Source of the DNA: an uncultured Candidatus Saccharibacteria bacterium
Lineage (GTDB): Bacteria; Patescibacteriota; Minisyncoccia; UBA6257; UBA9933
Direction of reading: 5' to 3'
NCBI GenBank assembly: GCA_964482855.1
Contig: CAYZYY010000009.1
Location: 1-12,055 of the forward strand
DNA: 12,055 nucleotides
Position 1 is the stretch's first letter. Each line of letters opens with the position of its first letter. Shown piece by piece: positions 159 through 10,321 of the stretch. Position numbers and translations under genes: made by a program. The notes under the pieces were generated by a model. It was given only the letters and a program-made list of their open reading frames with translations, had not been told where the DNA came from and did not search any database.

Positions 159-1412
159 ATGGACAAAGGCCTGTCCAGAGGACTCATTTCCAAAAAGTCC
201 TGGCGGAAAGCATTCGAGTTTGCCGGTGTCCACATACCCAAAAAAATCAAAGGGGCAAAATCCGCTTTTTTGAAAAAATACGGATTCAAAGCGCCGGCGC
301 TACTGGCGATTTCAATAACCAAACGATGCAATTTGAAATGCCTGGGCTGCTACGCCGACGGCTCGCGGACAAGCCGGGAAAAACTGCCGTTTGAAATCAT
401 TTCAAGAATAATCAAAGAACAAAAAACTCTTTGGGGTTCGCACTTCACCGTTATCACCGGCGGCGAACCGTTTTTGTACGAAGACAACGGCAAAACCTTT
501 CTTGATTTGGCCGCGGAGCACCAGAATACGTTTTTCCTGGTTTACACCAACGGAACCCTGATTGACGAAAAAATGGCGAAGAAAATCGCCGATTTGGGAA
601 ACATCACGCCGGCTATTTCGGTTGAGGGCTTTGAAAAAGAAACCGACGAACGGAGAGGAAAAGGCGTTCATCAAAAAATTCTCAGGACATTCGAAGCGCT
701 CAGAAAGGCCGGCGTAATGTTCGGCATTTCCATCACTCCCACCCGCCAAAATCTTGAGTTGACGCTGAGCGACGAATTTATTGATTATTACTTTGAAAAA
801 CTCGGAGCGGCTTACGCCTGGGTTCTCCAGTACACGCCTGTCGGCCGCGACCCGGATTTAAACCTGATGGTTACTCCGGAACAAAGAATGAAAATGTTCA
901 GGCGGGTCTGGCAAATAATCAGGGAAAAACAAATTCCGATGATTGATTTTTGGAATTGCGGCACGGCCATCGGCGGCTGTATCGCGGCCGGCAAGCCCCA
1001 AGTGGGATATCTTCATATTAACTGGCGGGGCGACGTCACCCCCTGCGTTTTCAAACCTTATTTCAGCCAGAACATTATTAAGATTTACGAAAAAGGCGGG
1101 GACTTGAATTCCATTTTGTTTTCGGATTTTTTCAAAAAAATCCGGCGATGGCAAAACGAATACGTCACGGGTAATACCATTGCCTGCTGTCCGGCCAGGG
1201 ACCATTACCAAATGTTATATCCCGTTCTTTGCGAAAAAGAAGTTAAGCCCATTGACGATTTGGCAAAAAAATCCCTCAAAAACAAGGTTTTGCGCCAAGG
1301 GTTGTTTGATTACGGGGAGAAATTCAGAACTCTTTCCGGAGAAATCTGGAAGAAAGAATATTTAGCGCCGGAAACGAAATCCGCTCCTGGCCGCGAAAAT
1401 CCCGATGATTAA
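159..1412 (+). CDS. Radical SAM enzyme with C-terminal SPASM/twitch-like auxiliary Fe-S domain; substrate unknown (maturase-like).
   Basis: ATG at 159. CX3CX2C motif (C57-N-L-K-C61-L-G-C64, nt ~327-350) inside 'ISITKRCNLKCLGCY'. Glycine-rich SAM motif 'ITGGEPFLY', followed by 'VYTNGTL' and 'ISVEGFEKE'. C-terminal Cys cluster: C267, C274, then 'GYLHINWRGDVTPC296' (SPASM-type beta-hairpin GxxxxVxxxGxVxPC), then C343-C344 and C358 (nt ~957-1232). The roughly 55-aa N-terminal extension is too short for a full RRE domain. Confidence 0.85.
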   Translation: MDKGLSRGLISKKSWRKAFEFAGVHIPKKIKGAKSAFLKKYGFKAPALLAISITKRCNLKCLGCYADGSRTSREKLPFEIISRIIKEQKTLWGSHFTVITGGEPFLYEDNGKTFLDLAAEHQNTFFLVYTNGTLIDEKMAKKIADLGNITPAISVEGFEKETDERRGKGVHQKILRTFEALRKAGVMFGISITPTRQNLELTLSDEFIDYYFEKLGAAYAWVLQYTPVGRDPDLNLMVTPEQRMKMFRRVWQIIREKQIPMIDFWNCGTAIGGCIAAGKPQVGYLHINWRGDVTPCVFKPYFSQNIIKIYEKGGDLNSILFSDFFKKIRRWQNEYVTGNTIACCPARDHYQMLYPVLCEKEVKPIDDLAKKSLKNKVLRQGLFDYGEKFRTLSGEIWKKEYLAPETKSAPGRENPDD

Positions 1413-2972
1413 AGCGGACAAGGCAAGTATCCAGTCGCCGAAACGGTTATAAAAAGTCCGGTGGGAAAAAATTTTAACCTCGGCATTGATAACTTCGTTG
1501 CCGATTTTTTCGTTTTTAACCATTAATTTTCCGGTCTGGTCAACGACGAAAGAATCTCCCTGATTGGCCGCCTGAACGAAATACCGACCGGTCTCCGCCG
1601 CCCTTACCCGGGCCATGGATAAAATCTGTCCCAAAATAAATTTATTCCCTTTGAAAATGGCGTCGCTGGCCGGACTGACGAAAAATTCCGCTCCCTGCCG
1701 GGCAAACTCCCTGTATAAGTAAGGAGAGGCGATTTCCGAGCACATTAAACCGGCTATTTTGACGCCGGCGTATTCGGCAATCGTCAGCTCCTCGCCCTTT
1801 TCATATCCGCGGGTTCTTTCCAAATCAACCAGCCAGTCTTCGCGGCCGGCTAATTTAAAAACCGCCGTCATAAAATAAGGAAGGTAATCTCCCACCGGCA
1901 TCAAAAGCGTTTTATCGTAAGCGGCGATAATTTTTTGTTCTTTTAAGTCAAAATAAACGAGTCGGGTTGAGGTCTCCGAGGTCCGGCGATCCAAATGCCA
2001 ACCGCTGTCAATAACCAGCGCTTCCGGACGATTTTCGGCCGATTCCGAAGAAAAAAGGCCGGGGTAAAAACGATTTAATCTCGGCAAAAAATTGGCGTGT
2101 TCCGGAAAAACGATTATCCGGGGCCATTCTTTTTCTTCCAGCGCTTCTTTAAAAAGACCGAGTTGAACTTCAGAAAATTCTTTTTCCTGTTTTTGGGTAT
2201 AATTAAAAAGAGAAGGGAAATTCGTTTGGACAAGGGTAATTGGAATTGTTTTTTTAAAAGACGGGGATTTTAAATTTTTGATTTCTGACAAAATATATGG
2301 AGCCAGTAACAGAAATATTGTTAAAAACAAAAAACTCAAACCGTAAACGGCTTTTTTTTGAAAAAGTAATTTTTCAAATAAAAAGAAAACCAGATAATTA
2401 ATAAGAGCCAGAAAAAAACTTAGCCCGTAAATACCGGCTATTCCGGCAATTAAATTAAAAGAAGAACTTCCCAGTCCGTAACCCAAATGGCCCAGAGTAA
2501 AATGAGCTCCCCAGAGAGAACCCGGCCCCCAGTTAAAAACGGTGAATGCCCATGCCCTCAAATATTCAAAAATTATCCAGAGGGAGGAAAAAAGGAAAAT
2601 ATCCGGCCACTGGCCGGTTTTTAAACGGGAAAAAACGTAAATACCGCCGGCAAAAAAGAATGAAGAAAATAAAACGTAAATCAGCCAGGCCAGCGATAAA
2701 ATAAACATGGTAATGATTTTGCCGTCTGCTCCCGCCCAATCGGCCATTGAAGCGAATAAAAAATAGCTCGTGGTGGCGCCGAAAAAAATGAGGCCGGTCA
2801 AATATCCTCCTGAGAACGCCCTGTTTTTAGAAGAATTCAAGCTGATAAAAACCAGTAAAGGAATCAGAGCAAACCAGAGTAAAAAATTAATGCCGTAAGG
2901 AGGATAACCAAAAATCAGCATAATCCCACTAACAACGGGCAAAACAAAATAAAGGTAATTGAATTTAATCAT
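1362..2972 (-). CDS. lnt: Apolipoprotein N-acyltransferase (Lnt-like): polytopic membrane N-terminus, CN-hydrolase (nitrilase-fold) domain, C-terminal transmembrane helix.
   Basis: ATG is the reverse complement of 2970-2972; stop is the reverse complement of 1362-1364. Multiple N-terminal hydrophobic helices. Nitrilase-fold catalytic-triad motifs: 'IVFPEHANF' (Glu), 'YDKTLLMPVGDY' (Lys, compare E. coli Lnt 'YNKHHLVPFGEF'), 'GLMCSEIASP' (Cys). The terminal hydrophobic helix 'WILALSALIIGIFAA' is typical of Lnt. Confidence 0.8.
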   Translation of the reverse strand: MIKFNYLYFVLPVVSGIMLIFGYPPYGINFLLWFALIPLLVFISLNSSKNRAFSGGYLTGLIFFGATTSYFLFASMADWAGADGKIITMFILSLAWLIYVLFSSFFFAGGIYVFSRLKTGQWPDIFLFSSLWIIFEYLRAWAFTVFNWGPGSLWGAHFTLGHLGYGLGSSSFNLIAGIAGIYGLSFFLALINYLVFFLFEKLLFQKKAVYGLSFLFLTIFLLLAPYILSEIKNLKSPSFKKTIPITLVQTNFPSLFNYTQKQEKEFSEVQLGLFKEALEEKEWPRIIVFPEHANFLPRLNRFYPGLFSSESAENRPEALVIDSGWHLDRRTSETSTRLVYFDLKEQKIIAAYDKTLLMPVGDYLPYFMTAVFKLAGREDWLVDLERTRGYEKGEELTIAEYAGVKIAGLMCSEIASPYLYREFARQGAEFFVSPASDAIFKGNKFILGQILSMARVRAAETGRYFVQAANQGDSFVVDQTGKLMVKNEKIGNEVINAEVKIFSHRTFYNRFGDWILALSALIIGIFAARSGFRFRR

Positions 2973-2988
2973 ACCCGTTGATTATAAT
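2959..2988 (+). promoter_or_regulatory. Candidate sigma70-like promoter for the + strand block starting at 3047: TTGAAT (2959-2964), 18-nt spacer, TATAAT (2983-2988).
   Basis: Hexamers read directly from the sequence. The -35 lies inside the lnt start region (divergent arrangement). The 58-nt leader has no Shine-Dalgarno sequence. Speculative. Confidence 0.2.
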
Positions 2989-3046
2989 ACATCGCAGTTG
3001 AAATTTTAAGCCGGATAAAGTATCATTAAACAATAATTTTAAATTT

Positions 3047-3685
3047 ATGGTAATCACTTTTTACGGCGAGGGCTGTTTTAAAGTCCAAAGCGGAGACCTT
3101 GTCGTCCTGACGGACCCTTTTGACAAAAATACCGGCCTGACGCCGCCGCGCTTCAAATCCGACATTACCCTGAAAACCCTTACTCTCATACCGATAATTG
3201 ACCAGCAGATTGACGAATCCATCGGCCATCCCATCTGGGGTCCGGGCGAATACAATATTAAAGACGTAAACATCAACGGCTTTCTTCTATCCGGCGAATC
3301 TTCGGAAAAGTTTTTGAAAACCGTCTATTTGGCGGAAGTGGAAAATATTAAGCTCTGTTTCCTGGGACATATTTCCGAAGCGCCCGAGCCCGCCATTCTG
3401 GAGCGTCTGGGAGAAATTGACATTTTATTCATCCCGGCCGGCGGCGCGCCTTTCATTAACCAAAAATCCGCGGCGAAATTAATCAAACAAATCCAGCCCA
3501 AAATCGTGGTTCCCTGTTTTTTCAAAATCCCTTCCCTGAAAAGAACCGCCGACAAACTTGAAACGTTCTTGGACGAATTTAACGGTTCGAAAACGAAAGA
3601 ATCCGAAGGGCAGGATAAGTTGGTGATAAAAAAGAAGGATTTGGATAATGTGAAAAAGACGGAACTGATGATATTAAAGGCGTAG
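3047..3685 (+). CDS. MBL-fold (UPF0173-like) protein that appears to lack the canonical HxHxDH metal-binding motif; possibly a non-catalytic or divergent hydrolase.
   Basis: N-terminus 'MVITFYGEGCFKVQSGDLVVLTDPFD' resembles the beta-strand start of MBL/UPF0173 proteins (..ITWLGHACF....LIDPF..). Where HxHxDH is expected the sequence reads 'SDITLKTLTLIPIID'. The alignment is from memory and not computed. Confidence 0.55.
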   Translation: MVITFYGEGCFKVQSGDLVVLTDPFDKNTGLTPPRFKSDITLKTLTLIPIIDQQIDESIGHPIWGPGEYNIKDVNINGFLLSGESSEKFLKTVYLAEVENIKLCFLGHISEAPEPAILERLGEIDILFIPAGGAPFINQKSAAKLIKQIQPKIVVPCFFKIPSLKRTADKLETFLDEFNGSKTKESEGQDKLVIKKKDLDNVKKTELMILKA

Positions 3686-3691
3686 CGCTTT

Positions 3692-3985
3692 ATGTGGCAG
3701 AAGATTAAAAAAACGCTGAAAAGTATTCAAAATTCCGACGAAGCCAATAAAAAACGCTGGTTAATCGGGGCAAGCGCGGCTTCAATGATTATAGTGGTAG
3801 GGCTCTGGTTGATATATCTCAAATTCACCGTTGAATCCGGCAGCCCAAGCGTTGAAGCAAAAGAATCCGTCGGCTTCTGGCAAATTTTAAAAAACGGCCT
3901 GGTTATCATCTTCCAATCAATTAAAGAAAACATTACGAATTTCATTTCGGAATTAAGCAAGGGGAAAACAATTACGATAGAATAA
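3692..3985 (+). CDS. Small hypothetical membrane protein (97 aa, one predicted transmembrane helix).
   Basis: Six nt after the upstream stop. Charged N-terminus, then hydrophobic helix 'LIGASAASMIIVVGLWLIYL'. No recognisable domain. Confidence 0.4.
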   Translation: MWQKIKKTLKSIQNSDEANKKRWLIGASAASMIIVVGLWLIYLKFTVESGSPSVEAKESVGFWQILKNGLVIIFQSIKENITNFISELSKGKTITIE

Positions 3986-4009
3986 ATTTCCTTAAATAAT
4001 TTCCAAACT

Positions 4010-6484
4010 ATGCCAAAAGATTCGAACGAAGCCAAAAAAAACGAAATCGGGAAAGTTGAGGAACGCGAAATAACCGAAGAACTGCGGGAATCGTATTTAA
4101 GTTATGCCATGTCGGTAATCGTTTCCCGGGCCCTTCCCGACGTCCGGGACGGGCTAAAGCCGGTCCAACGGCGCATTTTGTGGACAATGTGGGAAGAAGG
4201 ACTGACTCATAACGCCAAATTCAGAAAGTCAGCGACCGTTGTCGGGTCTTGTCTCGGCCGTTATCACCCTCACGGTGACACTGCGGTTTACGACGCCATG
4301 GTCAGAATGGCCCAGGATTTTTCTTTGCGTTATCCCCTGGTTCAGGGACAGGGAAACCTGGGTTCGATCGATGGGGACGCGCCGGCGGCCATGAGATACT
4401 CGGAGGCAAAACTCAGTAAAATCGCGGAAGAACTTCTGTTCGACATTGAAAAAGAAACCATTGACTGGCGGCCGAATTATGACGGTTCCCGCCAGGAACC
4501 AAAACTTTTGCCGGCCAAATTACCCAACCTTTTGTTAAACGGCACCGTGGGAATTGCCGTGGGAATGGCAACCAATATTCCACCTCATAATTTAAATGAA
4601 ATAATCGACGCCCTTATCCACTTAACCGGACACCCCAAGGCAACTACCGAAGACTTGGTGGAATTCGTCCAGGGGCCGGATTTTCCCACCGGCGGCATTA
4701 TTTACGATAAAAAAGCCATTACCGAAGCGTATGTTTCCGGCAAAGGAGCCATTACCTGCCGCGCCAAAGCCGAGATTGAAGAACGCAAAGCCGGTCAGTT
4801 CAACATCGTCATTACCGAAATCCCTTACCAGGTCAACAAAGCGGAGTTGATTATTAAAATCGCCGGGATGGTCCAGGATAAAAAACTTGAAGGCATCCGC
4901 GACCTGCGCGATGAAAGCGACAAAGAAGGCCTGAGAATTATGATTGAGCTTAAAAATGACGCCAATCCCCAGAAAATTTTAAACCGGCTTTATCAGTATA
5001 CCGATCTTCAGAAAAATTTTTATCTCAATATGATTGCCCTGGTTGCCGACGGCCTCCAACCCCAGCTTCTTTCCCTAAAAGAAGTTTTGACCGCCCATTT
5101 GGAACACCGGCAGGTCGTCGTTGAACGCCGGACGAAATTCGAGTTGAAAAAAGCCCAGGAAAGGGCGCATATTCTGGAAGGGCTGGCAAAAGCGCTTTCG
5201 TCAATTGACCAAATAATATCCACCATTAAAAAATCAAAAGACCGGCAGGAGGCGCATCAAAACCTGGTTAAAAAATTCAAATTCACCGATATTCAGACCA
5301 ACGCCATTTTGGAGATGAAACTTCAAACCTTGGCTGGCCTGGAGCGCCAGAAAATTGAAAACGAACTGAAAGAAAAAAAGAAATTAATCGGCGAACTGCA
5401 GGCGCTTCTGAAAAGTCCGCAAAAAATTATCAACGTCATTAAAGAAGAATTTTTGGAACTGAAAAAAAATTACGGGGACCAGCGCCGGACGAAAGTAATC
5501 GTTTCCGGACTGAAAGAATTTAAAGAGGAAGACCTTATCCCCCAGGAAGAAGTGGTTATTACCCTTTCGCAAAGCGGTTATATTAAAAGAGTGGCGCCGA
5601 CCGCCATCCGTGTTCAGCACCGCGGAGGAAAAGGAATCGTCGGTTCCGAAATGAGCGAAGAGGATTTTATCAGCCACTTTATTTCCGCCGACACCCACGA
5701 TAACATTTTGTTCTTTACCGACCAGGGACGGGCTTTCCAAACGAAAGTTTACGAAATTCCCGCCGGCTCCAGAACGGCCAAGGGCAAAGTTATCCAAAAT
5801 TTTCTGGAAATTCCTCCGGATGAAAAAATCAGCGCCATCATTTCTTACGCCGCCAATAACCAAAAATCGGAAAGCGGCGATTATTTAGTAATGGCGACGA
5901 AAAACGGATTGATTAAAAAAACTTCCCTTAATGATTTTGCCAATGTCCGGAGAAGCGGGCTTATCGCCATCAAACTGCAAAAAGACGATGAACTTAAATG
6001 GGTTAAAATGTCTTCGGGAAAAGACGAAATAATTTTAGCGACCGTCCAGGGACAGGCAATTAGGTTTAAAGAAACTCAACTGCGGTCAATGGGACGAAAT
6101 GCCGCCGGCGTTAAATCCATCAGGCTCAAAAGGGGTGATTTTGTCGCCGGACTTGATATAATAAAAGAAAAGGCGGGAGGGAAAAGCCAAAAACTGTTGG
6201 TTGTTACGGAAAACGGCTTTGCCAAACAAACGCCGCTCAATCAGTATAAAATCCAGAGTCGCGGCGGACAGGGAATTAAAACCTCAAAGATAACTTCCAA
6301 AACCGGTTTAATAATCAGCGCCAAAATTATCATTGATGAAGAAGAACTATTGGCTCTTTCCGGCAAAGGACAGATTATTAAAACCAAAATTTCCAGCATT
6401 CGGACCGCCGGCCGGGCCACTTCCGGGGTAAAAATCATGAGACTGAAACAAGGAGATAAAGTGGCCGGAATAGTATGTTTATAA
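4010..6484 (+). CDS. gyrA: DNA gyrase subunit A.
   Basis: '[26 protein letters not shown]' N-terminal signature. QRDR '[17 protein letters not shown]'. Active-site region '[19 protein letters not shown]' with catalytic Tyr. GyrA-box 'QHRGGKGI' in the C-terminal beta-pinwheel domain. Length 824 aa, normal for GyrA, so no intein. Confidence 0.97.
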
Positions 6485-6488
6485 AAAT

Positions 6489-7799
6489 ATGAATCTCTCA
6501 CGCAATCAAATCATTATTATAGGAATTGCCGGTCTGATTGTTTTAATCTTCATTCTGATGCTTCTCGGCGTTATTCCCGGGCTAAAAGGACCGGGGGGAG
6601 GCGGTTTTGGTTTCGGGGGAAGCGAACAAACTGAAATCGTTTTTTGGGGCGTTTCCGATGCCGATAATTCAAATGCCATCCAATCAATAATAGATGAATA
6701 TTCGTCAACGGAACCAAACGTTAAAATTAATTATCGCCGATTCGACAACGCCGATACCTATGAAAAAACCCTTTTAAACGCTTTGGCTACGGGACAGGCG
6801 CCGGATATCTTCATGTTCCACAACGGCTGGCTGCCTAAACACTACGATAAAGTCGTGCCCGTTCCCGAATCTTATTTGCCCCTGACTCAGTTCCGGCAGT
6901 TATTCCCGACCGTGGCCGAACAGGATTTCGTTTCGGGCGGAAGAATTTATTCCATACCTCTTTACATTGACACTCTGGCTTTTATTTACAACAAGAATAT
7001 TTTTGACGCGAAATCCGTCGCCATTCCGCCCAAAACCTGGCAGGAATTTCAGGGTTTGATTCCCCAATTGAAACAGGTAAACGTTCTCAATCAAATCGTA
7101 AAGCCGGCGGCGGCTCTGGGCGGCTCGGAAAAAAATATCGATTCGGCTTCCGACTTGCTGGCGCTTTTAATGCTCCAATTCGGCAGCCAGATGATGGACC
7201 AGTATGGAAAAATAAATTTCGGCTCCGAGGGTCTCTCTGCTTTGAATTTTTATCTCCAATTCAGCAACCCATCCAACCCTTATTACACCTGGAATGAAAA
7301 TCTGCGCTCTTCCCTGGATAGTTTTGCCGAAGGTTCAACCGCCATTATTTTCGATTACGCGTCTTCTCTTCCTTTAATCAAAGCGAAAAATCCTTATCTT
7401 GATATCGGAGTCAGTCCGATGCTCCAATTTTCCGACCCGAATCAAAACCAACCGATTAATTATGCCGACTATTGGGGGTTGAGCGTTTCCAATCAAAGCC
7501 GAAACCAAGATTCGGCCTGGAATTTTATTTTCTCGGCAACGATGGATTCCCAGATTTCCGAAATTTACCTCCAAGCCGGCGAAAAGCCGCCGGCCCTCCG
7601 TTCCTTGATTGAAAAATACAAAAACGACCCGAATTTGGGAGTTTTTGCCAGACAAGCATTAACTGCCCGCTCCTGGCGGCAACCGGACAACGCCGCAATC
7701 AGACAAATTTTTTCCAATATGATAGAATATATTTTAAATGGACGGCTTAATCCGGAACAAGCGATGGAACAAGCTGAAAACGAAATAAATTCATTATAA
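6489..7799 (+). CDS. Membrane-anchored extracellular solute-binding protein (ABC-transporter SBP family 1-like), orphan: no permease or ATPase adjacent.
   Basis: N-terminal transmembrane helix 'IIIIGIAGLIVLIFILMLLGVI', Gly-rich linker 'GPGGGGFGFGG', then 'EIVFWGVSDADNSNAIQSIIDEY...NVKINYRRFDNADTYEKTLLNALATGQAPDIFMFHNGWLPKHYDK', which matches the conserved N-lobe pattern of family-1 SBPs. The ATG is 4 nt after the gyrA stop. Confidence 0.75.
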   Translation: MNLSRNQIIIIGIAGLIVLIFILMLLGVIPGLKGPGGGGFGFGGSEQTEIVFWGVSDADNSNAIQSIIDEYSSTEPNVKINYRRFDNADTYEKTLLNALATGQAPDIFMFHNGWLPKHYDKVVPVPESYLPLTQFRQLFPTVAEQDFVSGGRIYSIPLYIDTLAFIYNKNIFDAKSVAIPPKTWQEFQGLIPQLKQVNVLNQIVKPAAALGGSEKNIDSASDLLALLMLQFGSQMMDQYGKINFGSEGLSALNFYLQFSNPSNPYYTWNENLRSSLDSFAEGSTAIIFDYASSLPLIKAKNPYLDIGVSPMLQFSDPNQNQPINYADYWGLSVSNQSRNQDSAWNFIFSATMDSQISEIYLQAGEKPPALRSLIEKYKNDPNLGVFARQALTARSWRQPDNAAIRQIFSNMIEYILNGRLNPEQAMEQAENEINSL

Positions 7800-7813
7800 A
7801 CCGATATAAATTA

Positions 7814-8200
7814 ATGAGAAAAATCATTTTAATTTCCAGTTTCTGTTTTTTGTCTTTGGTTTCCATTACTCAGGCAGCCGGCCTGGTGCCTTGCGGCGGC
7901 AGTACCGGAATAGAATGCACCTGGTGCCACTTAATGCAGTTGTTTAAAAACATCATTGATTTCATGCTCTACCTCGTCATTCCTCTGGCGATAATAATGA
8001 TAGTAGTCGGAGGAATCATGGTTATGACCGCCGGCGGCTCAACCGAGCGCGCTTCCAAAGGCAGAGAGATTATTACCGCCGCCGTTATCGGTCTCGTTAT
8101 TGCCTTGCTTTCCTGGTTAATTATTGATATAATAATTAAAGTAATTGGACAGGGCTGGAATACTTTAAAAATCGGGCCCTGGAACGAATTAAATTGTTAG
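7814..8200 (+). CDS. Pilin-like small secreted protein P1 (VirB2/TrbC-like putative T4SS pilin; subfamily A).
   Basis: Signal peptide 'MRKIILISSFCFLSLVSITQAAG', then 'LVPCGGSTGIECTWC'. Hydrophobic helix 1 '...LVIPLAIIMIVVGGIMVMTAGG', charged loop 'STERASKGRE', hydrophobic helix 2 'IITAAVIGLVIALLSWLIIDIII'. Helices, loop and MTAGG motif are shared with P5 and with P2-P4. Confidence 0.6.
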   Translation: MRKIILISSFCFLSLVSITQAAGLVPCGGSTGIECTWCHLMQLFKNIIDFMLYLVIPLAIIMIVVGGIMVMTAGGSTERASKGREIITAAVIGLVIALLSWLIIDIIIKVIGQGWNTLKIGPWNELNC

Positions 8201-8210
8201 AAAACGCATT

Positions 8211-8528
8211 ATGCAAATTGACGAAAAGAAGCTTAAAAAGATTTTAAAAGAACAGCGCGAAGATTATCAGCGTTATTTGGGTATTTTGACCGAAGATTTC
8301 GGCTCAAAAACGGAATTAATCGCTGAATCACTTTTAGGCCTTCAAAGTCAGCTTAAATCCATCAAAGAGATGATAGGCAGAAACACCGAGGATATTGAAA
8401 TGATGAAAATGGACTTGCATATTATCAGAAATGACCTCAAAGAAAAAATTGACAGAAATGAATTTTTGGTTTTAGAAAAAAGAGTATTTAAGTTGGAAAA
8501 AAAAATAACCGCAAAAATAACCCGTTAA
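8211..8528 (+). CDS. Hypothetical cytoplasmic coiled-coil protein (105 aa) embedded in the pilin-like array.
   Basis: No signal peptide and no transmembrane helix. Highly charged, with K/E/L heptad-like periodicity ('KLKKILKEQREDYQRYL...LKSIKEMIGRNTEDIEMMKMDLHIIRNDLKEKIDRNEFLVLEKRVFKLEKKI'). Tightly coupled to its neighbours (10 nt and 4 nt). Confidence 0.5.
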   Translation: MQIDEKKLKKILKEQREDYQRYLGILTEDFGSKTELIAESLLGLQSQLKSIKEMIGRNTEDIEMMKMDLHIIRNDLKEKIDRNEFLVLEKRVFKLEKKITAKITR

Positions 8529-8532
8529 AACG

Positions 8533-8928
8533 ATGAAAAAGAGTAATATTGCAAAAATACTATTAATAAGCTTTGTGTTTCTTAGTTTATTTAATATTTC
8601 ATCCGTTAATAAACCCGTTTTGGCCGAGGATTATAGCCAGCAAAGCGCGATTAAGAAGCTTTGTGAAAATCCCGACGATTGTCCAATTAAAGCCCCGAGT
8701 GACGTTTTTAAAATCCTGGCAAAAGCCGTCCGATACGTTTACACTATTTTTTTCATCGTGGCAATAATCTTTATTCTTGTGGCGGCTTTCAACTTCCTAA
8801 CGGCCCAAGGAGAACCGGAAAAAATCAAGAGCGCCAGAAATCAAGTCTTCTGGGCGGTGATTGCCATTGCCATTGCCTTGATTTCGGTCGGCGCCGCCCA
8901 AATCATTAAAGCTTTTATAACGCCTTAA
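8533..8928 (+). CDS. Pilin-like small secreted protein P2 (VirB2/TrbC-like; subfamily B).
   Basis: Signal peptide ending '...VLA', variable region with a Cys pair 'CENPDDCP', then conserved 'VRYVYTIFFIVAIIFILVAAFNFLTAQGEPEKIKSARNQVFWAVIAIAIALISVG'. Confidence 0.65.
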   Translation: MKKSNIAKILLISFVFLSLFNISSVNKPVLAEDYSQQSAIKKLCENPDDCPIKAPSDVFKILAKAVRYVYTIFFIVAIIFILVAAFNFLTAQGEPEKIKSARNQVFWAVIAIAIALISVGAAQIIKAFITP

Positions 8929-8931
8929 AAT

Positions 8932-9414
8932 ATGTTTGGGAAAAAACTTATTTTTATCGCTTTGATAGTTTCGTTCGTTTGTTTGCCTTTTTTAAGCCAG
9001 GCAATTAATCCCGGCAGCATACCCGGGGCCAAAGACCTTGGAATCAGTCAGGAATCCCCGATACAGGGGCCTGGAGGACTATTAAACGTCGTTGCCGGCA
9101 TTGTTAAATGGGTTTATACCTTATTCTTTGTCATTGCGGTTCTTTTCATTCTTTTTGCCGCTTTCAATTATCTGACAGCCGGCGGCCAGCCGGAAAAAGT
9201 CAAAAGCGCCCAAGACCAATTGCTTTACGCCGCCATTGCCATTGCCATTGCCTTGATGGCAATCGGAGTCACTGCTATTATTAAAAATGTTCTGGAAGGA
9301 AAAACGAGCTCTTCGTCTCCGACTGAAAATAATTACTATAATTACCCGAATTACGAAGCGCCCCCGGGCACTTCTCCCAACAACGAACTACCTCCGGGCA
9401 CTTACAACATTTAA
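8932..9414 (+). CDS. Pilin-like small secreted protein P3 (subfamily B) with a C-terminal Tyr/Asn/Pro-rich low-complexity tail.
   Basis: Signal peptide '...LSQA', variable Gly/Pro-rich region, then conserved 'VKWVYTLFFVIAVLFILFAAFNYLTAGGQPEKVKSAQDQLLYAAIAIAIALMAIG'. Tail 'SSSSPTENNYYNYPNYEAPPGTSPNNELPPGTYNI'. Starts 3 nt after the P2 stop. Confidence 0.65.
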   Translation: MFGKKLIFIALIVSFVCLPFLSQAINPGSIPGAKDLGISQESPIQGPGGLLNVVAGIVKWVYTLFFVIAVLFILFAAFNYLTAGGQPEKVKSAQDQLLYAAIAIAIALMAIGVTAIIKNVLEGKTSSSSPTENNYYNYPNYEAPPGTSPNNELPPGTYNI

Positions 9415-9469
9415 AATCCGAATCAAAAAATTAAAAGGTCGGGATAAAAATTGAATTAGAAAATAAAAT

Positions 9470-9844
9470 ATGAAATTATCAAAAACAAAAGTTATTAAAC
9501 TTTCTCTTGTAATTTCCGTTATTGGGGTATTGGCGTTGGGGAGTATTGCTTTCGGGCAGGTTGCCCAAATCCCGGGAGTAAACCCAACCGGCCCGTCAAC
9601 CGTCGGGGGATTAATTGACGTAATAAGAGCCGTTGTCAGATGGGTTTATATCATATTCTTTGTTCTCGCGGTTTTGTTCATTCTCTTCGCGGCCTTCAGT
9701 TATTTGACCGCCGGAGGTGACGCGGAAAAAGTGGACAAAGCCAAAAGCCAGATTATTTACGCGGCAGTGGCCATTGCCGTTGCTTTGTTGGCGGTAGGAT
9801 TCGAAGTAATCATCAGAAATTTCCTTTCTTCCCCCACCGCTTAA
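9470..9844 (+). CDS. Pilin-like small secreted protein P4 (subfamily B).
   Basis: Signal peptide/transmembrane helix 'LSLVISVIGVLALGSIAFG', variable region, then conserved 'VVRWVYIIFFVLAVLFILFAAFSYLTAGGDAEKVDKAKSQIIYAAVAIAVALLAVG'. Confidence 0.65.
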   Translation: MKLSKTKVIKLSLVISVIGVLALGSIAFGQVAQIPGVNPTGPSTVGGLIDVIRAVVRWVYIIFFVLAVLFILFAAFSYLTAGGDAEKVDKAKSQIIYAAVAIAVALLAVGFEVIIRNFLSSPTA

Positions 9845-9863
9845 CGAAATCGTTTATAAAGAA

Positions 9864-9896
9864 AACTCAGCCCTTTTTCAGGGGCTGAGTTTTCCC
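9864..9896 (+). terminator. Rho-independent terminator after P4.
   Basis: Perfect 9-bp stem ACTCAGCCC (9865-9873) / GGGCTGAGT (9882-9890), 7-nt U-rich loop, then TTT and CCC. Confidence 0.6.
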
Positions 9897-9911
9897 AAAG
9901 TAAAATTGACA

Positions 9912-10283
9912 ATGAAATTTTTGAAAAAAATAAATTCTCTTAAGCTAAAATTAACCGGCCTGATACTGTCCGGCTCGGTTTTTTTAACGAATAAGGTTTT
10001 CGCGCAAACAACCGGAGGAAGTCCTTCTACTAAACTTGAAAATCCATTAGGAGAAACTAGCATTATTAAAATTATTAGTAATGTCCTAAATTATCTTATT
10101 TACATCAGTTTTCCTATTTTGGCTTTGATGATTCTAATTGGAGGTTTCCAGATTATGACCGCCCAAGACAATCCGGAAAAAATCAAAAAGGGCAGGACAA
10201 CCATAACATACGCGGTTATAGGCTTTGTAATCGTTTTAATATCCAAAGGAAGCGTTTTAATACTTTTAAAGATAATAAAATAA
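9912..10283 (+). CDS. Pilin-like small secreted protein P5 (subfamily A, closest to P1).
   Basis: The ORF track starts at TTG 9906; the first ATG is at 9912 (MKFLKK...). Signal peptide ending '...VFA', variable Ser/Thr/Gly-rich region, then 'LIYISFPILALMILIGGFQIMTAQDNPEKIKKGRTTITYAVIGFVIVLIS', which aligns with P1 'LVIPLAIIMIVVGGIMVMTAGGSTERASKGREIITAAVIGLVIALLS'. Confidence 0.6.
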   Translation: MKFLKKINSLKLKLTGLILSGSVFLTNKVFAQTTGGSPSTKLENPLGETSIIKIISNVLNYLIYISFPILALMILIGGFQIMTAQDNPEKIKKGRTTITYAVIGFVIVLISKGSVLILLKIIK

Positions 10284-10286
10284 AAA

Positions 10287-10321
10287 AACCCCCGACTGTA
10301 ATACTACTTAGTAGGGGGTTT
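10287..10321. terminator. Bidirectional hairpin terminator; the strong U-tract is on the minus-strand side, ending the 10348..12029 operon.
   Basis: A-run 10282-10288, stem AACCCCC (10287-10293) / GGGGGTT (10314-10320), inner sub-stem TACTA/TAGTA. Read on the minus strand: hairpin followed by T7. Confidence 0.5.

Follow-up and report, generated by a model that had tools for sequence, protein, structure and literature searches.

The stretch of DNA analysed here, called the window throughout, comprises positions 1 to 12,055 of contig CAYZYY010000009.1 (assembly GCA_964482855.1), filed under an uncultured Candidatus Saccharibacteria bacterium. Its plus strand carries, at 7814–10283, five small open reading frames (ORFs) in a single orientation, P1 to P5, and we are highly confident on sequence grounds that these are the Paceibacteria/Wolfebacteria form of an array of type IV secretion system (T4SS) pilin-family genes, a kind already known in Patescibacteria. 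With less assurance, we think it probable that their products are Sec-exported, signal-peptidase-processed hairpin pilins from which a T4SS would build a heteromeric pilus or conduit. Much of the uncultured diversity among bacteria belongs to Patescibacteria, whose cells live attached to those of a host, and the T4SS with its pilin array is essential in the one species tested. The window holds no new kind of element; it is a clean, widely conserved example of a known one, and its useful regularities are that the pilins are detached from the secretion motor, fall into three stable types and are coupled to a sugar-type binding protein.

Family assignment of the five proteins

The Pfam model PF18895 (T4SS_pilin; gathering cut-off 26.6 bits) matched all five proteins, with E-values from 1.6e-11 to 2.1e-5. 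Scores were 38.2 bits for P1, 25.0 for P2 (E 2.1e-5), 26.2 for P3 (E 8.6e-6), 38.1 for P4 and 44.5 for P5, placing P1, P4 and P5 above the cut-off. The TrbC/VirB2 model PF04956 (cut-off 27.9 bits) was passed by P5 alone, at 28.5 bits (E 1.8e-6) over profile positions 1–92 of 98; P1 reached 14.1 bits, and P2–P4 gave no match. All five also matched the NCBIfam model NF045849, at E-values from 1.6e-8 (P5, the best) to 5.7e-3 (P2 at 8.8e-7), every score lying under its 40-bit equivalog cut-off. An earlier note, written from the letters of the window alone, had called the five ORFs VirB2/TrbC-like pilins. Its coordinates and sizes agree with the ORF listing, and the profile check of its family claim was positive, through PF18895 for all five proteins and PF04956 for P5.

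The assignment extends to the wider family. In a set of 75 aligned sequences (70 P5 homologs and the paralogs), counting Pfam matches at E<=1e-3, PF18895 matched 75/75, NF045849 74/75 and the TrbC model 22/75. P5 had 99 homologs, with identity up to 77%, and the nearest relatives are in metagenome-assembled genomes (MAGs) of Candidatus Wolfebacteria and other Paceibacteria (Paceibacterota), within the Patescibacteria or candidate phyla radiation. A tblastn search of 72,556 plasmids with P5 found no match. Because PF18895 matches all five proteins and other genomes preserve the whole array, gene by gene, we do not take it for a chance arrangement. The link to multi-copy Patescibacteria pilin families, which the note had drawn, is in the literature (Quinonero-Coronel et al. 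2025, PMC12102498; Wang et al. 2023, PMC10633639; a 2025 review, PMC12857230).

Topology and individual pilins

Hydropathy gives each protein the same layout: an n-region, an h-region and an AXA-like site, followed by two hydrophobic stretches of ∼30 amino acids (aa) with a short basic loop between them. From the hydropathy profiles and AXA-like sites, the Sec leaders of P1–P5 are predicted to be cleaved at TQA↓AG, VLA↓ED, SQA↓IN, AFG↓QV and VFA↓QT, respectively. The exposed variable segment of the predicted mature proteins then measures 15–26 aa, shorter than the 30–45 aa first proposed. The loop between the helices holds 3–4 K/R residues in a T-A-G-G-x-P-E-K-x-K pattern, and the motifs quoted in the note are present in the sequences (MTAGG in P1, LTAQG in P2, LTAGG in P3 and P4, MTAQD in P5, with PEK.K close by). 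The AlphaFold2 model of P5 yielded the expected helical hairpin, with helices at 51–82 and 88–122 (predicted local distance difference test, pLDDT, >90) and a disordered N-segment. Together with hydropathy and the AXA sites, it bears out the shared architecture of signal peptide, variable segment and conserved hydrophobic hairpin. Structure comparison was non-specific, a confident hairpin model matching any helical hairpin.

We also considered type IV pilus pilins and type II secretion system pseudopilins. These were rejected: the leaders are of the Sec type with n-, h- and c-regions, the G↓F/M-x-x-x-E site is missing, and there are two transmembrane (TM) helices. Type IV pilus pilin families were absent among the Pfam matches of the five proteins.

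The individual pilins differ mainly at their exposed ends. In nearly all loci P1 is the gene that comes first after the upstream solute-binding protein (SBP). Its mature N-terminus is rich in Cys (C-x7-C-x2-C), and Cys is also the last residue of its C-terminal tail; its orthologs mostly keep the Cys cluster (VPC...C-x2-C) and the C-terminal Cys, which follows a GPWN motif. A disulfide may link cysteines at both exposed ends of P1, reminiscent of cyclised TrbC/VirB2. P2 has the most variable N-terminal mature segment among orthologs (25% identity). P3 carries a 37-aa C-terminal tail (9304–9411, residues ∼125–160) of low complexity, rich in N, Y and P, with an internal repeat EAPPGTS/ELPPGTY that is also seen in the DNA (9346–9373 and 9376–9403). 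Predicted to lie outside the cell and with conservation of only 8% between orthologs, this tail is a candidate contact surface. P5, with an NPLG motif ahead of helix 1, is both the most TrbC-like and the most conserved paralog.

Gene layout and probable transcription units

The array and its neighbours are laid out as follows (genes from the ORF listing with profile matches, hairpins from RNA folding).

3047–3685, plus strand: Lactamase_B_3-like gene
3692–3985, plus strand: TM protein, 97 aa
4010–6484, plus strand: GyrA, 824 aa
6489–7799, plus strand: SBP, 436 aa (PF01547, PF13416)
7814–8200, plus strand: P1 pilin paralog, 128 aa (PF18895)
8211–8528, plus strand: coiled-coil ORF, 105 aa, between P1 and P2
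8533–8928, plus strand: P2 pilin paralog of B type, 131 aa (PF18895 marginal, NF045849)
8932–9414, plus strand: P3 pilin paralog of B type, 160 aa (PF18895 marginal)
9470–9844, plus strand: P4 pilin paralog of B type, 124 aa (PF18895)
9861–9894, plus strand: stem-loop in the P4/P5 interval
9906/9912–10283, plus strand: P5 pilin paralog (PF18895, PF04956)
10286–10321, plus strand: weaker hairpin downstream of P5
10348–10881, minus strand: TM protein, 177 aa, convergent with P5
10878–12050, minus strand: SPFH/Band_7 protein, convergent with P5

P5 may start at a TTG (9906), giving 125 aa, or at an ATG (9912), giving 123 aa; the database copy, P0001, begins at the ATG. From the Lactamase_B_3-like gene to P5, all on one strand, intergenic gaps are 3–67 nt. 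Within this stretch a run of nine genes (3047–9844, Lactamase_B_3-like gene to P4) has gaps of 3–55 nt and stops at a strong hairpin. That hairpin, the stem-loop at 9861–9894, has a perfect 15-bp stem flanked by A- and U-tracts and folds at -24.2 kcal/mol (z -6.47; 0/200 shuffles folded equally well). It was not listed by a consensus terminator scan. It resembles a bidirectional intrinsic terminator, a role in which it would split P1–P4 from P5, and because of its strength P5 is probably a transcription unit of its own, apart from gyrA-SBP-P1-P4. P1–P4 themselves are probably co-transcribed with gyrA; since gyrA is essential, this would imply constitutive expression of the pilins. The hairpin between the convergent P5 and 177-aa genes (10286–10321) is weak, at -17.1 kcal/mol and z -2.1. 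Rfam and tRNA scans across the window gave no matches.

Orthology and paralog types

We searched species-representative genomes with an alignment of B-type pilins and found 56 loci. Each had up to 9 ORFs matching the pilin profile, most commonly 5, counts in which short contig fragments hold 1–2 and some overlapping ORFs are included. Every pilin was typed by its best-matching window paralog. The window's gene order is shared by a Wolfebacteria contig (L001) and three others (L005–L007). Identities of P1–P5 to their positional counterparts are 75, 69, 57, 75 and 80% in L001 and 62, 58, 65, 70 and 69% in L005. Neighbouring genes score much the same (L001/L005: Lactamase_B_3-like 74/68%, SBP 78/64%, GyrA 87/80%), so the pilins are not fast-evolving. 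Paralogs are far more distant from one another, at 23–48% identity.

Of the two subfamilies proposed in the note, B (P2–P4) is clear, with 48–56% identity between members over the hairpin core. The other, pairing P1 with P5, is weak: their cores are 34% identical, as against 33% for P5 with P2. Identities between P1 and B types are 21–22%, and between P5 and B types 27–33%. The order 1-2-3-4-5 marks the window's own clade (13 loci). In most other Paceibacteria the array opens with a P1-type gene, a P5-type gene comes next, and between one and seven B-type genes close it; P5 is thus in second place beyond the window's clade. P1 and P5 types are single-copy in nearly all loci, and the copy number of B varies (1–7). 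The P1 and P5 types are old, and B is the expandable type. A fixed composition of this kind, P1, P5 and several B, has apparently not been described before.

Tandem multiplication of a pilin gene invites the explanation that it serves mainly antigenic or host-range variation, the paralogs being interchangeable major pilins that evade or match hosts. An antigenic role has been proposed for the VirB2 paralogs of Bartonella and Anaplasma. Here, B-type copies range from 1 to 7 between genomes, and conservation is lowest in the exposed segments: members of an orthogroup share 59–72% identity in the hairpin and 25–55% in the exposed N-segment, and the P3 tail falls lower still. The idea has also been put forward for Patescibacteria (PMC12102498). 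We nonetheless consider it unlikely as the main reason for five genes. The pilins have 1:1 orthologs in conserved order, at identities equal to those of housekeeping neighbours, and two of the three types are single-copy and ancient. Exact DNA repeats shared by paralogs reach 15 nt at most, leaving gene conversion or switching without a substrate, and no DNA repeats, invertible structures or cassettes fit for recombination or phase variation were found in the array. P1–P4, moreover, appear to be co-transcribed, in which case all would be made together. With 1:1 orthologs, ordinary rates and no long repeats, a fixed set of non-redundant subunits fits better than antigenic variation. Of the two meanings that the note had offered for the multiplicity, orthology and repeats thus favour the multi-subunit or specialised set, and for the Paceibacteria lineage the regularities argue against antigenic variation as the default reading.

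The upstream solute-binding protein

The gene directly upstream of P1 encodes a membrane-anchored family-1 (MalE-type) oligosaccharide-binding protein. It matches PF01547 at 92.6 bits (5.8e-26) and PF13416 at 6.1e-23. A profile search of the PDB returned sugar SBPs (5ci5 at 3.5e-29), and the top Foldseek matches of its AlphaFold2 model (pLDDT 79) were all oligosaccharide SBPs. The N-terminus consists of a TM helix and, after it, a Gly-rich linker. No ABC (ATP-binding cassette) permease or ATPase gene (BPD_transp, ABC_tran) was found in the annotated neighbourhoods of the SBP-pilin loci.

The SBP is coupled to the pilins in both directions. In 51 loci it lies on the same strand directly 5' of the first pilin gene, within 150 nt in 50/51, with a median gap of 5 nt and many pairs overlapping by 4 nt. 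For the reverse test, 80 metagenome loci were chosen by the SBP alone (39–78% identity), 76 of them with room downstream; a pilin gene followed within 200 nt in 73/76, and in the other three at 240–600 nt. The coupling extends to gyrA in most loci, with gyrA standing upstream in 54/54 of the SBP-selected metagenome loci. The SBP-pilin link is kept in four genome loci that lack an upstream gyrA (L024, L035, L038 and L060). In another (L016, 8350–12097, Wolfebacteria GW2011_GWA1_44_24), the minus strand carries the SBP and P1, and the other pilin genes converge on them; because this inversion leaves the pair together, SBP-P1 is the tightest unit of the module. The note was right to place gyrA and an SBP upstream of the array, and wrong to treat the latter as an orphan and mere context, since it is the array's most tightly linked partner.

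This strict coupling is apparently undescribed: PMC12102498 mentions neither an SBP nor a gyrA link, and no searchable paper joins Patescibacteria, solute-binding protein and pilin. It suggests an idea that we offer as speculative and regard as rather doubtful, in which the SBP and the three pilin types form one dedicated co-transcribed module apart from the T4SS motor, the SBP being a component of the pilus system, either a receptor or adhesin at its tip or base for glycans on the host surface or the step that captures host oligosaccharides for uptake by way of the pilus, and P1 a disulfide-closed analogue of cyclised TrbC/VirB2. If the SBP were indeed a pilus component, we would have a first concrete clue to the substrate or ligand of the essential Patescibacteria T4SS.

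Proposed mechanism and the place of the T4SS

In the mechanism that we favour, insertion and cleavage would leave the mature pilins as a membrane pool, each with both ends on the outer side of the membrane and its K/R-rich loop on the inner side. A Patescibacteria-type T4SS whose genes (VirB4/TrsD/VirB3/VirB6) lie at another place on the chromosome would extract and polymerise them into a heteromeric pilus or conduit where the cell touches its host. P5 could be its core subunit and P1 a specialised one, minor or at the tip or base, that disulfides stabilise, and the variable exposed ends of the B paralogs may supply surface diversity. The SBP, probably on the same transcript, might act at the same surface structure, where it would bind carbohydrate in the role of receptor or adhesin or provide the capture step for uptake. 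The regularities of the locus predict heteromeric filaments of fixed stoichiometry, an interaction between SBP and pilins, and an oligosaccharide ligand of the SBP.

Several points weigh against this reading. P2 and P3 fall marginally under the PF18895 cut-off. A profile of the five paralogs found no pilin among PDB sequences and, structural matches being non-specific, the homology to T4SS pilins rests on sequence profiles and not on fold. The window has no VirB4, VirB6, VirB3 or VirD4 gene (ORF listing and Pfam agree here with the note, which had seen no T4SS ATPase or channel gene), and no VirB4-like ATPase was found within ∼10 kb in the 56 genome loci or within ∼5 kb in the 80 metagenome loci. 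With no T4SS genes nearby, the functional link between pilins and T4SS is indirect. The adjacency of the SBP could partly reflect frozen synteny of the block, and adjacency alone is no proof of shared function. Finally, no such pilus has been seen in any Patescibacterium, and the review gives it as a possibility only (PMC12857230); the role of the Patescibacteria T4SS has been described as completely unknown (PMC11665869).

Large ORFs with Walker-A motifs near the arrays were considered as VirB4 candidates and rejected, being instead FtsH, ComM, PilB/T2SSE, H+-PPase, IF-2, RecA and integrase. A PilB-like ATPase (T2SSE + MshEN) lies ∼3 kb 3' of the array in two loci (L022, 4691–6412; L023, 13528–15237); it is the only secretion ATPase near any array, and its position is probably coincidental.

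At the level of whole genomes, VirB4 is frequent. The published count is 2,417/3,035 Patescibacteria assemblies, and among the 13 Wolfebacteria rows examined in Table S1 of PMC12102498, 12 have it. The table also scores as VirB4-positive three genomes that carry the SBP-pilin locus: GW2011_GWA1_44_24 (L016), RIFCSPLOWO2_01_FULL_47_17b (L026) and Harrisonbacteria RIFCSPLOWO2_01_FULL_44_18 (L052).

These genomes bear on a second alternative, that the SBP and the hairpin proteins (10 TM helices) make up a complex independent of any T4SS, serving as an uptake or sensing device or as surface-display anchors. The strictness of the SBP-pilin coupling, which outlasts both the loss of gyrA linkage and the inversion in L016, suits such a complex. 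So does a neighbourhood free of both ABC permease/ATPase and T4SS genes, as does the anchor-like use of the hairpin in some loci to bear unrelated extracellular domains (see below). We know of no SBP-dependent transporter (ABC, TRAP or TTT) built of cleaved subunits with two TM helices. The homology is specifically to conjugation/T4SS pilin families, in three independent libraries, and VirB4 is listed for the three genomes just named. Elsewhere in Patescibacteria, VirB2-like genes adjoin virB4 in 1,135 of the 1,948 assemblies that have both (PMC12102498), and the pilins of Southlakia epibionticum lie inside an essential T4SS cluster (PMC10633639). On this balance we find a T4SS-independent complex improbable, and retain the T4SS-built pilus or conduit as our preferred reading.

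That the proteins are holin-, bacteriocin- or immunity-like membrane peptides unrelated to secretion, an alternative that the note had itself named, is highly improbable: small size, two hydrophobic helices, multiple tandem copies and a fold search non-specific for hairpins would all allow it, but no holin or bacteriocin family was matched in Pfam or NCBIfam at E up to 1, Sec signal peptides are predicted, the genes sit in a probably co-transcribed housekeeping block with gyrA that is conserved at class level, and the neighbouring genes include none for a lysin, immunity or ABC export.

Comparison with known systems

The closest known systems are the other Patescibacteria arrays. Using the same two Pfam models, Quinonero-Coronel et al. 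(PMC12102498) found 441 arrays of 2–11 VirB2-like genes in 383 Patescibacteria assemblies, with a mean paralog identity of 25% and a maximum of 54%. S. epibionticum ML1 has, within its T4SS cluster, a six-pilin array essential for epibiotic growth (PMC10633639). The window array resembles these in its tandem PF18895/PF04956-type genes, in its number of genes and in the low identity of its paralogs; it also has one interrupting non-pilin gene, as do some of them, and no relaxase nearby. It differs in belonging to class Paceibacteria (Wolfebacteria) and lying away from virB4, whereas the S. epibionticum array is inside its T4SS cluster. It is set in a housekeeping block (Lactamase_B_3-like gene, small TM protein, gyrA) behind a MalE-type SBP, a link absent from PMC12102498, and its fixed three-type composition with 1:1 orthology is unlike the description of Patescibacteria arrays.

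TrbC/VirB2 pilins of diderms (Agrobacterium VirB2, RP4 TrbC, F TraA) share the long Sec signal peptide, a mature length of ∼70–100 aa and the two hydrophobic helices with a short basic loop, and P5 passes their Pfam model. By contrast, the window represents a monoderm organism, with five divergent paralogs in place of one major pilin and no adjacent virB operon; Patescibacteria are the only monoderms whose T4SS has VirB2-like pilins, according to the review (PMC12857230). There is no evidence for head-to-tail cyclisation, and P1 has instead its conserved Cys at both exposed ends. Similarity to solved conjugative pilins is undetectable in sequence and non-specific in structure.

NF045849 describes the Mbov_0395/MMCAP2_0565 pilin-like protein of Mycoplasma integrative and conjugative elements, likewise a small two-helix protein from a monoderm, in MPF-FATA-type conjugation. 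The window family matches it at E 1e-10 to 6e-3, under the equivalog cut-off, as relatives and not as members. The virB2 paralogs of the Bartonella and Anaplasma T4SS are also a tandem amplification of divergent genes. There they are part of a virB operon in an intracellular pathogen and are read as antigenic variation, in contrast to the stable orthologs and missing recombination substrate seen here.

The 105-aa ORF and pilin fusions

The note overlooked that the array is interrupted by a non-pilin ORF, of 105 aa (8211–8528). Its product is a coiled coil with no TM helix, signal peptide or hydrophobic segment, is predicted to be cytoplasmic, and has no significant Pfam or NCBIfam match. The ORF is missing from most syntenic loci. 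Homologs with 37–51% identity occur in or beside the pilin arrays of L012 (1251–1604), L053 (8281–8583) and L145 (638–985), while the homolog in L144 has no such position; the family is very rare, with 15 relatives in 5.8 billion proteins. We read the ORF as a passenger or accessory gene of sporadic occurrence, like the 'non-pilin gene' of arrays in PMC12102498.

In some remote loci the hairpin is joined to much larger parts. A 990-aa protein in L025 (6093–9065) combines a leader, immunoglobulin-like domains and a poly-Gly linker with a P5-type hairpin. P1-type proteins reach 412–500 aa in L037 (4222–5460), L102 (6322–7677) and L130 (6307–7809), and Pfam found no domain in the long C-terminal extensions of P1-type proteins from L102, L130, L045 and L039. 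Fusion of large extracellular parts to either the N- or the C-terminal side of the hairpin is consistent with both ends lying outside. In L056 (6773–7609) a pilin hairpin is joined to a lysozyme-like SLT_3 domain, scored at 26.1 bits, marginally below the cut-off of 27. This would fit an apparatus that has to traverse the wall of the cell, in the manner of VirB1 in T4SSs.

Other observations

The GyrA ortholog of L001, the closest named relative (1148–4780, 1,210 aa), carries an intein (Pfam Intein_splicing), as does that of L048 (3968–7627); the window's GyrA has none.

The minus-strand pair downstream of P5, the 177-aa TM protein and the SPFH/Band_7 protein, is conserved in position (L001, 8404–9945; L005, 10400–11760; L007, 10406–12045). 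Its sequence is not: between genomes, identity is at most 44% over at most 121 aa, compared with 57–87% for the pilins, SBP and GyrA. In L005–L007 the pair is followed by a XerC/D-like integrase. It looks like a hypervariable two-gene cassette adjoining a tyrosine recombinase.

Several species-representative MAGs that bear the Paceibacteria-type locus (those of L008, L013, L030, L031 and others) go under titles naming 'uncultured Candidatus Saccharibacteria', 'Spirochaetia' or 'Nanoarchaeota', and are probably mislabelled or mis-binned.

At the other end of the window, a radical-SAM-like ORF (159–1412, plus strand) and an Lnt-like ORF with multiple TM helices (1362–2972, minus strand) overlap at their 3' ends by 51 nt (1362–1412).

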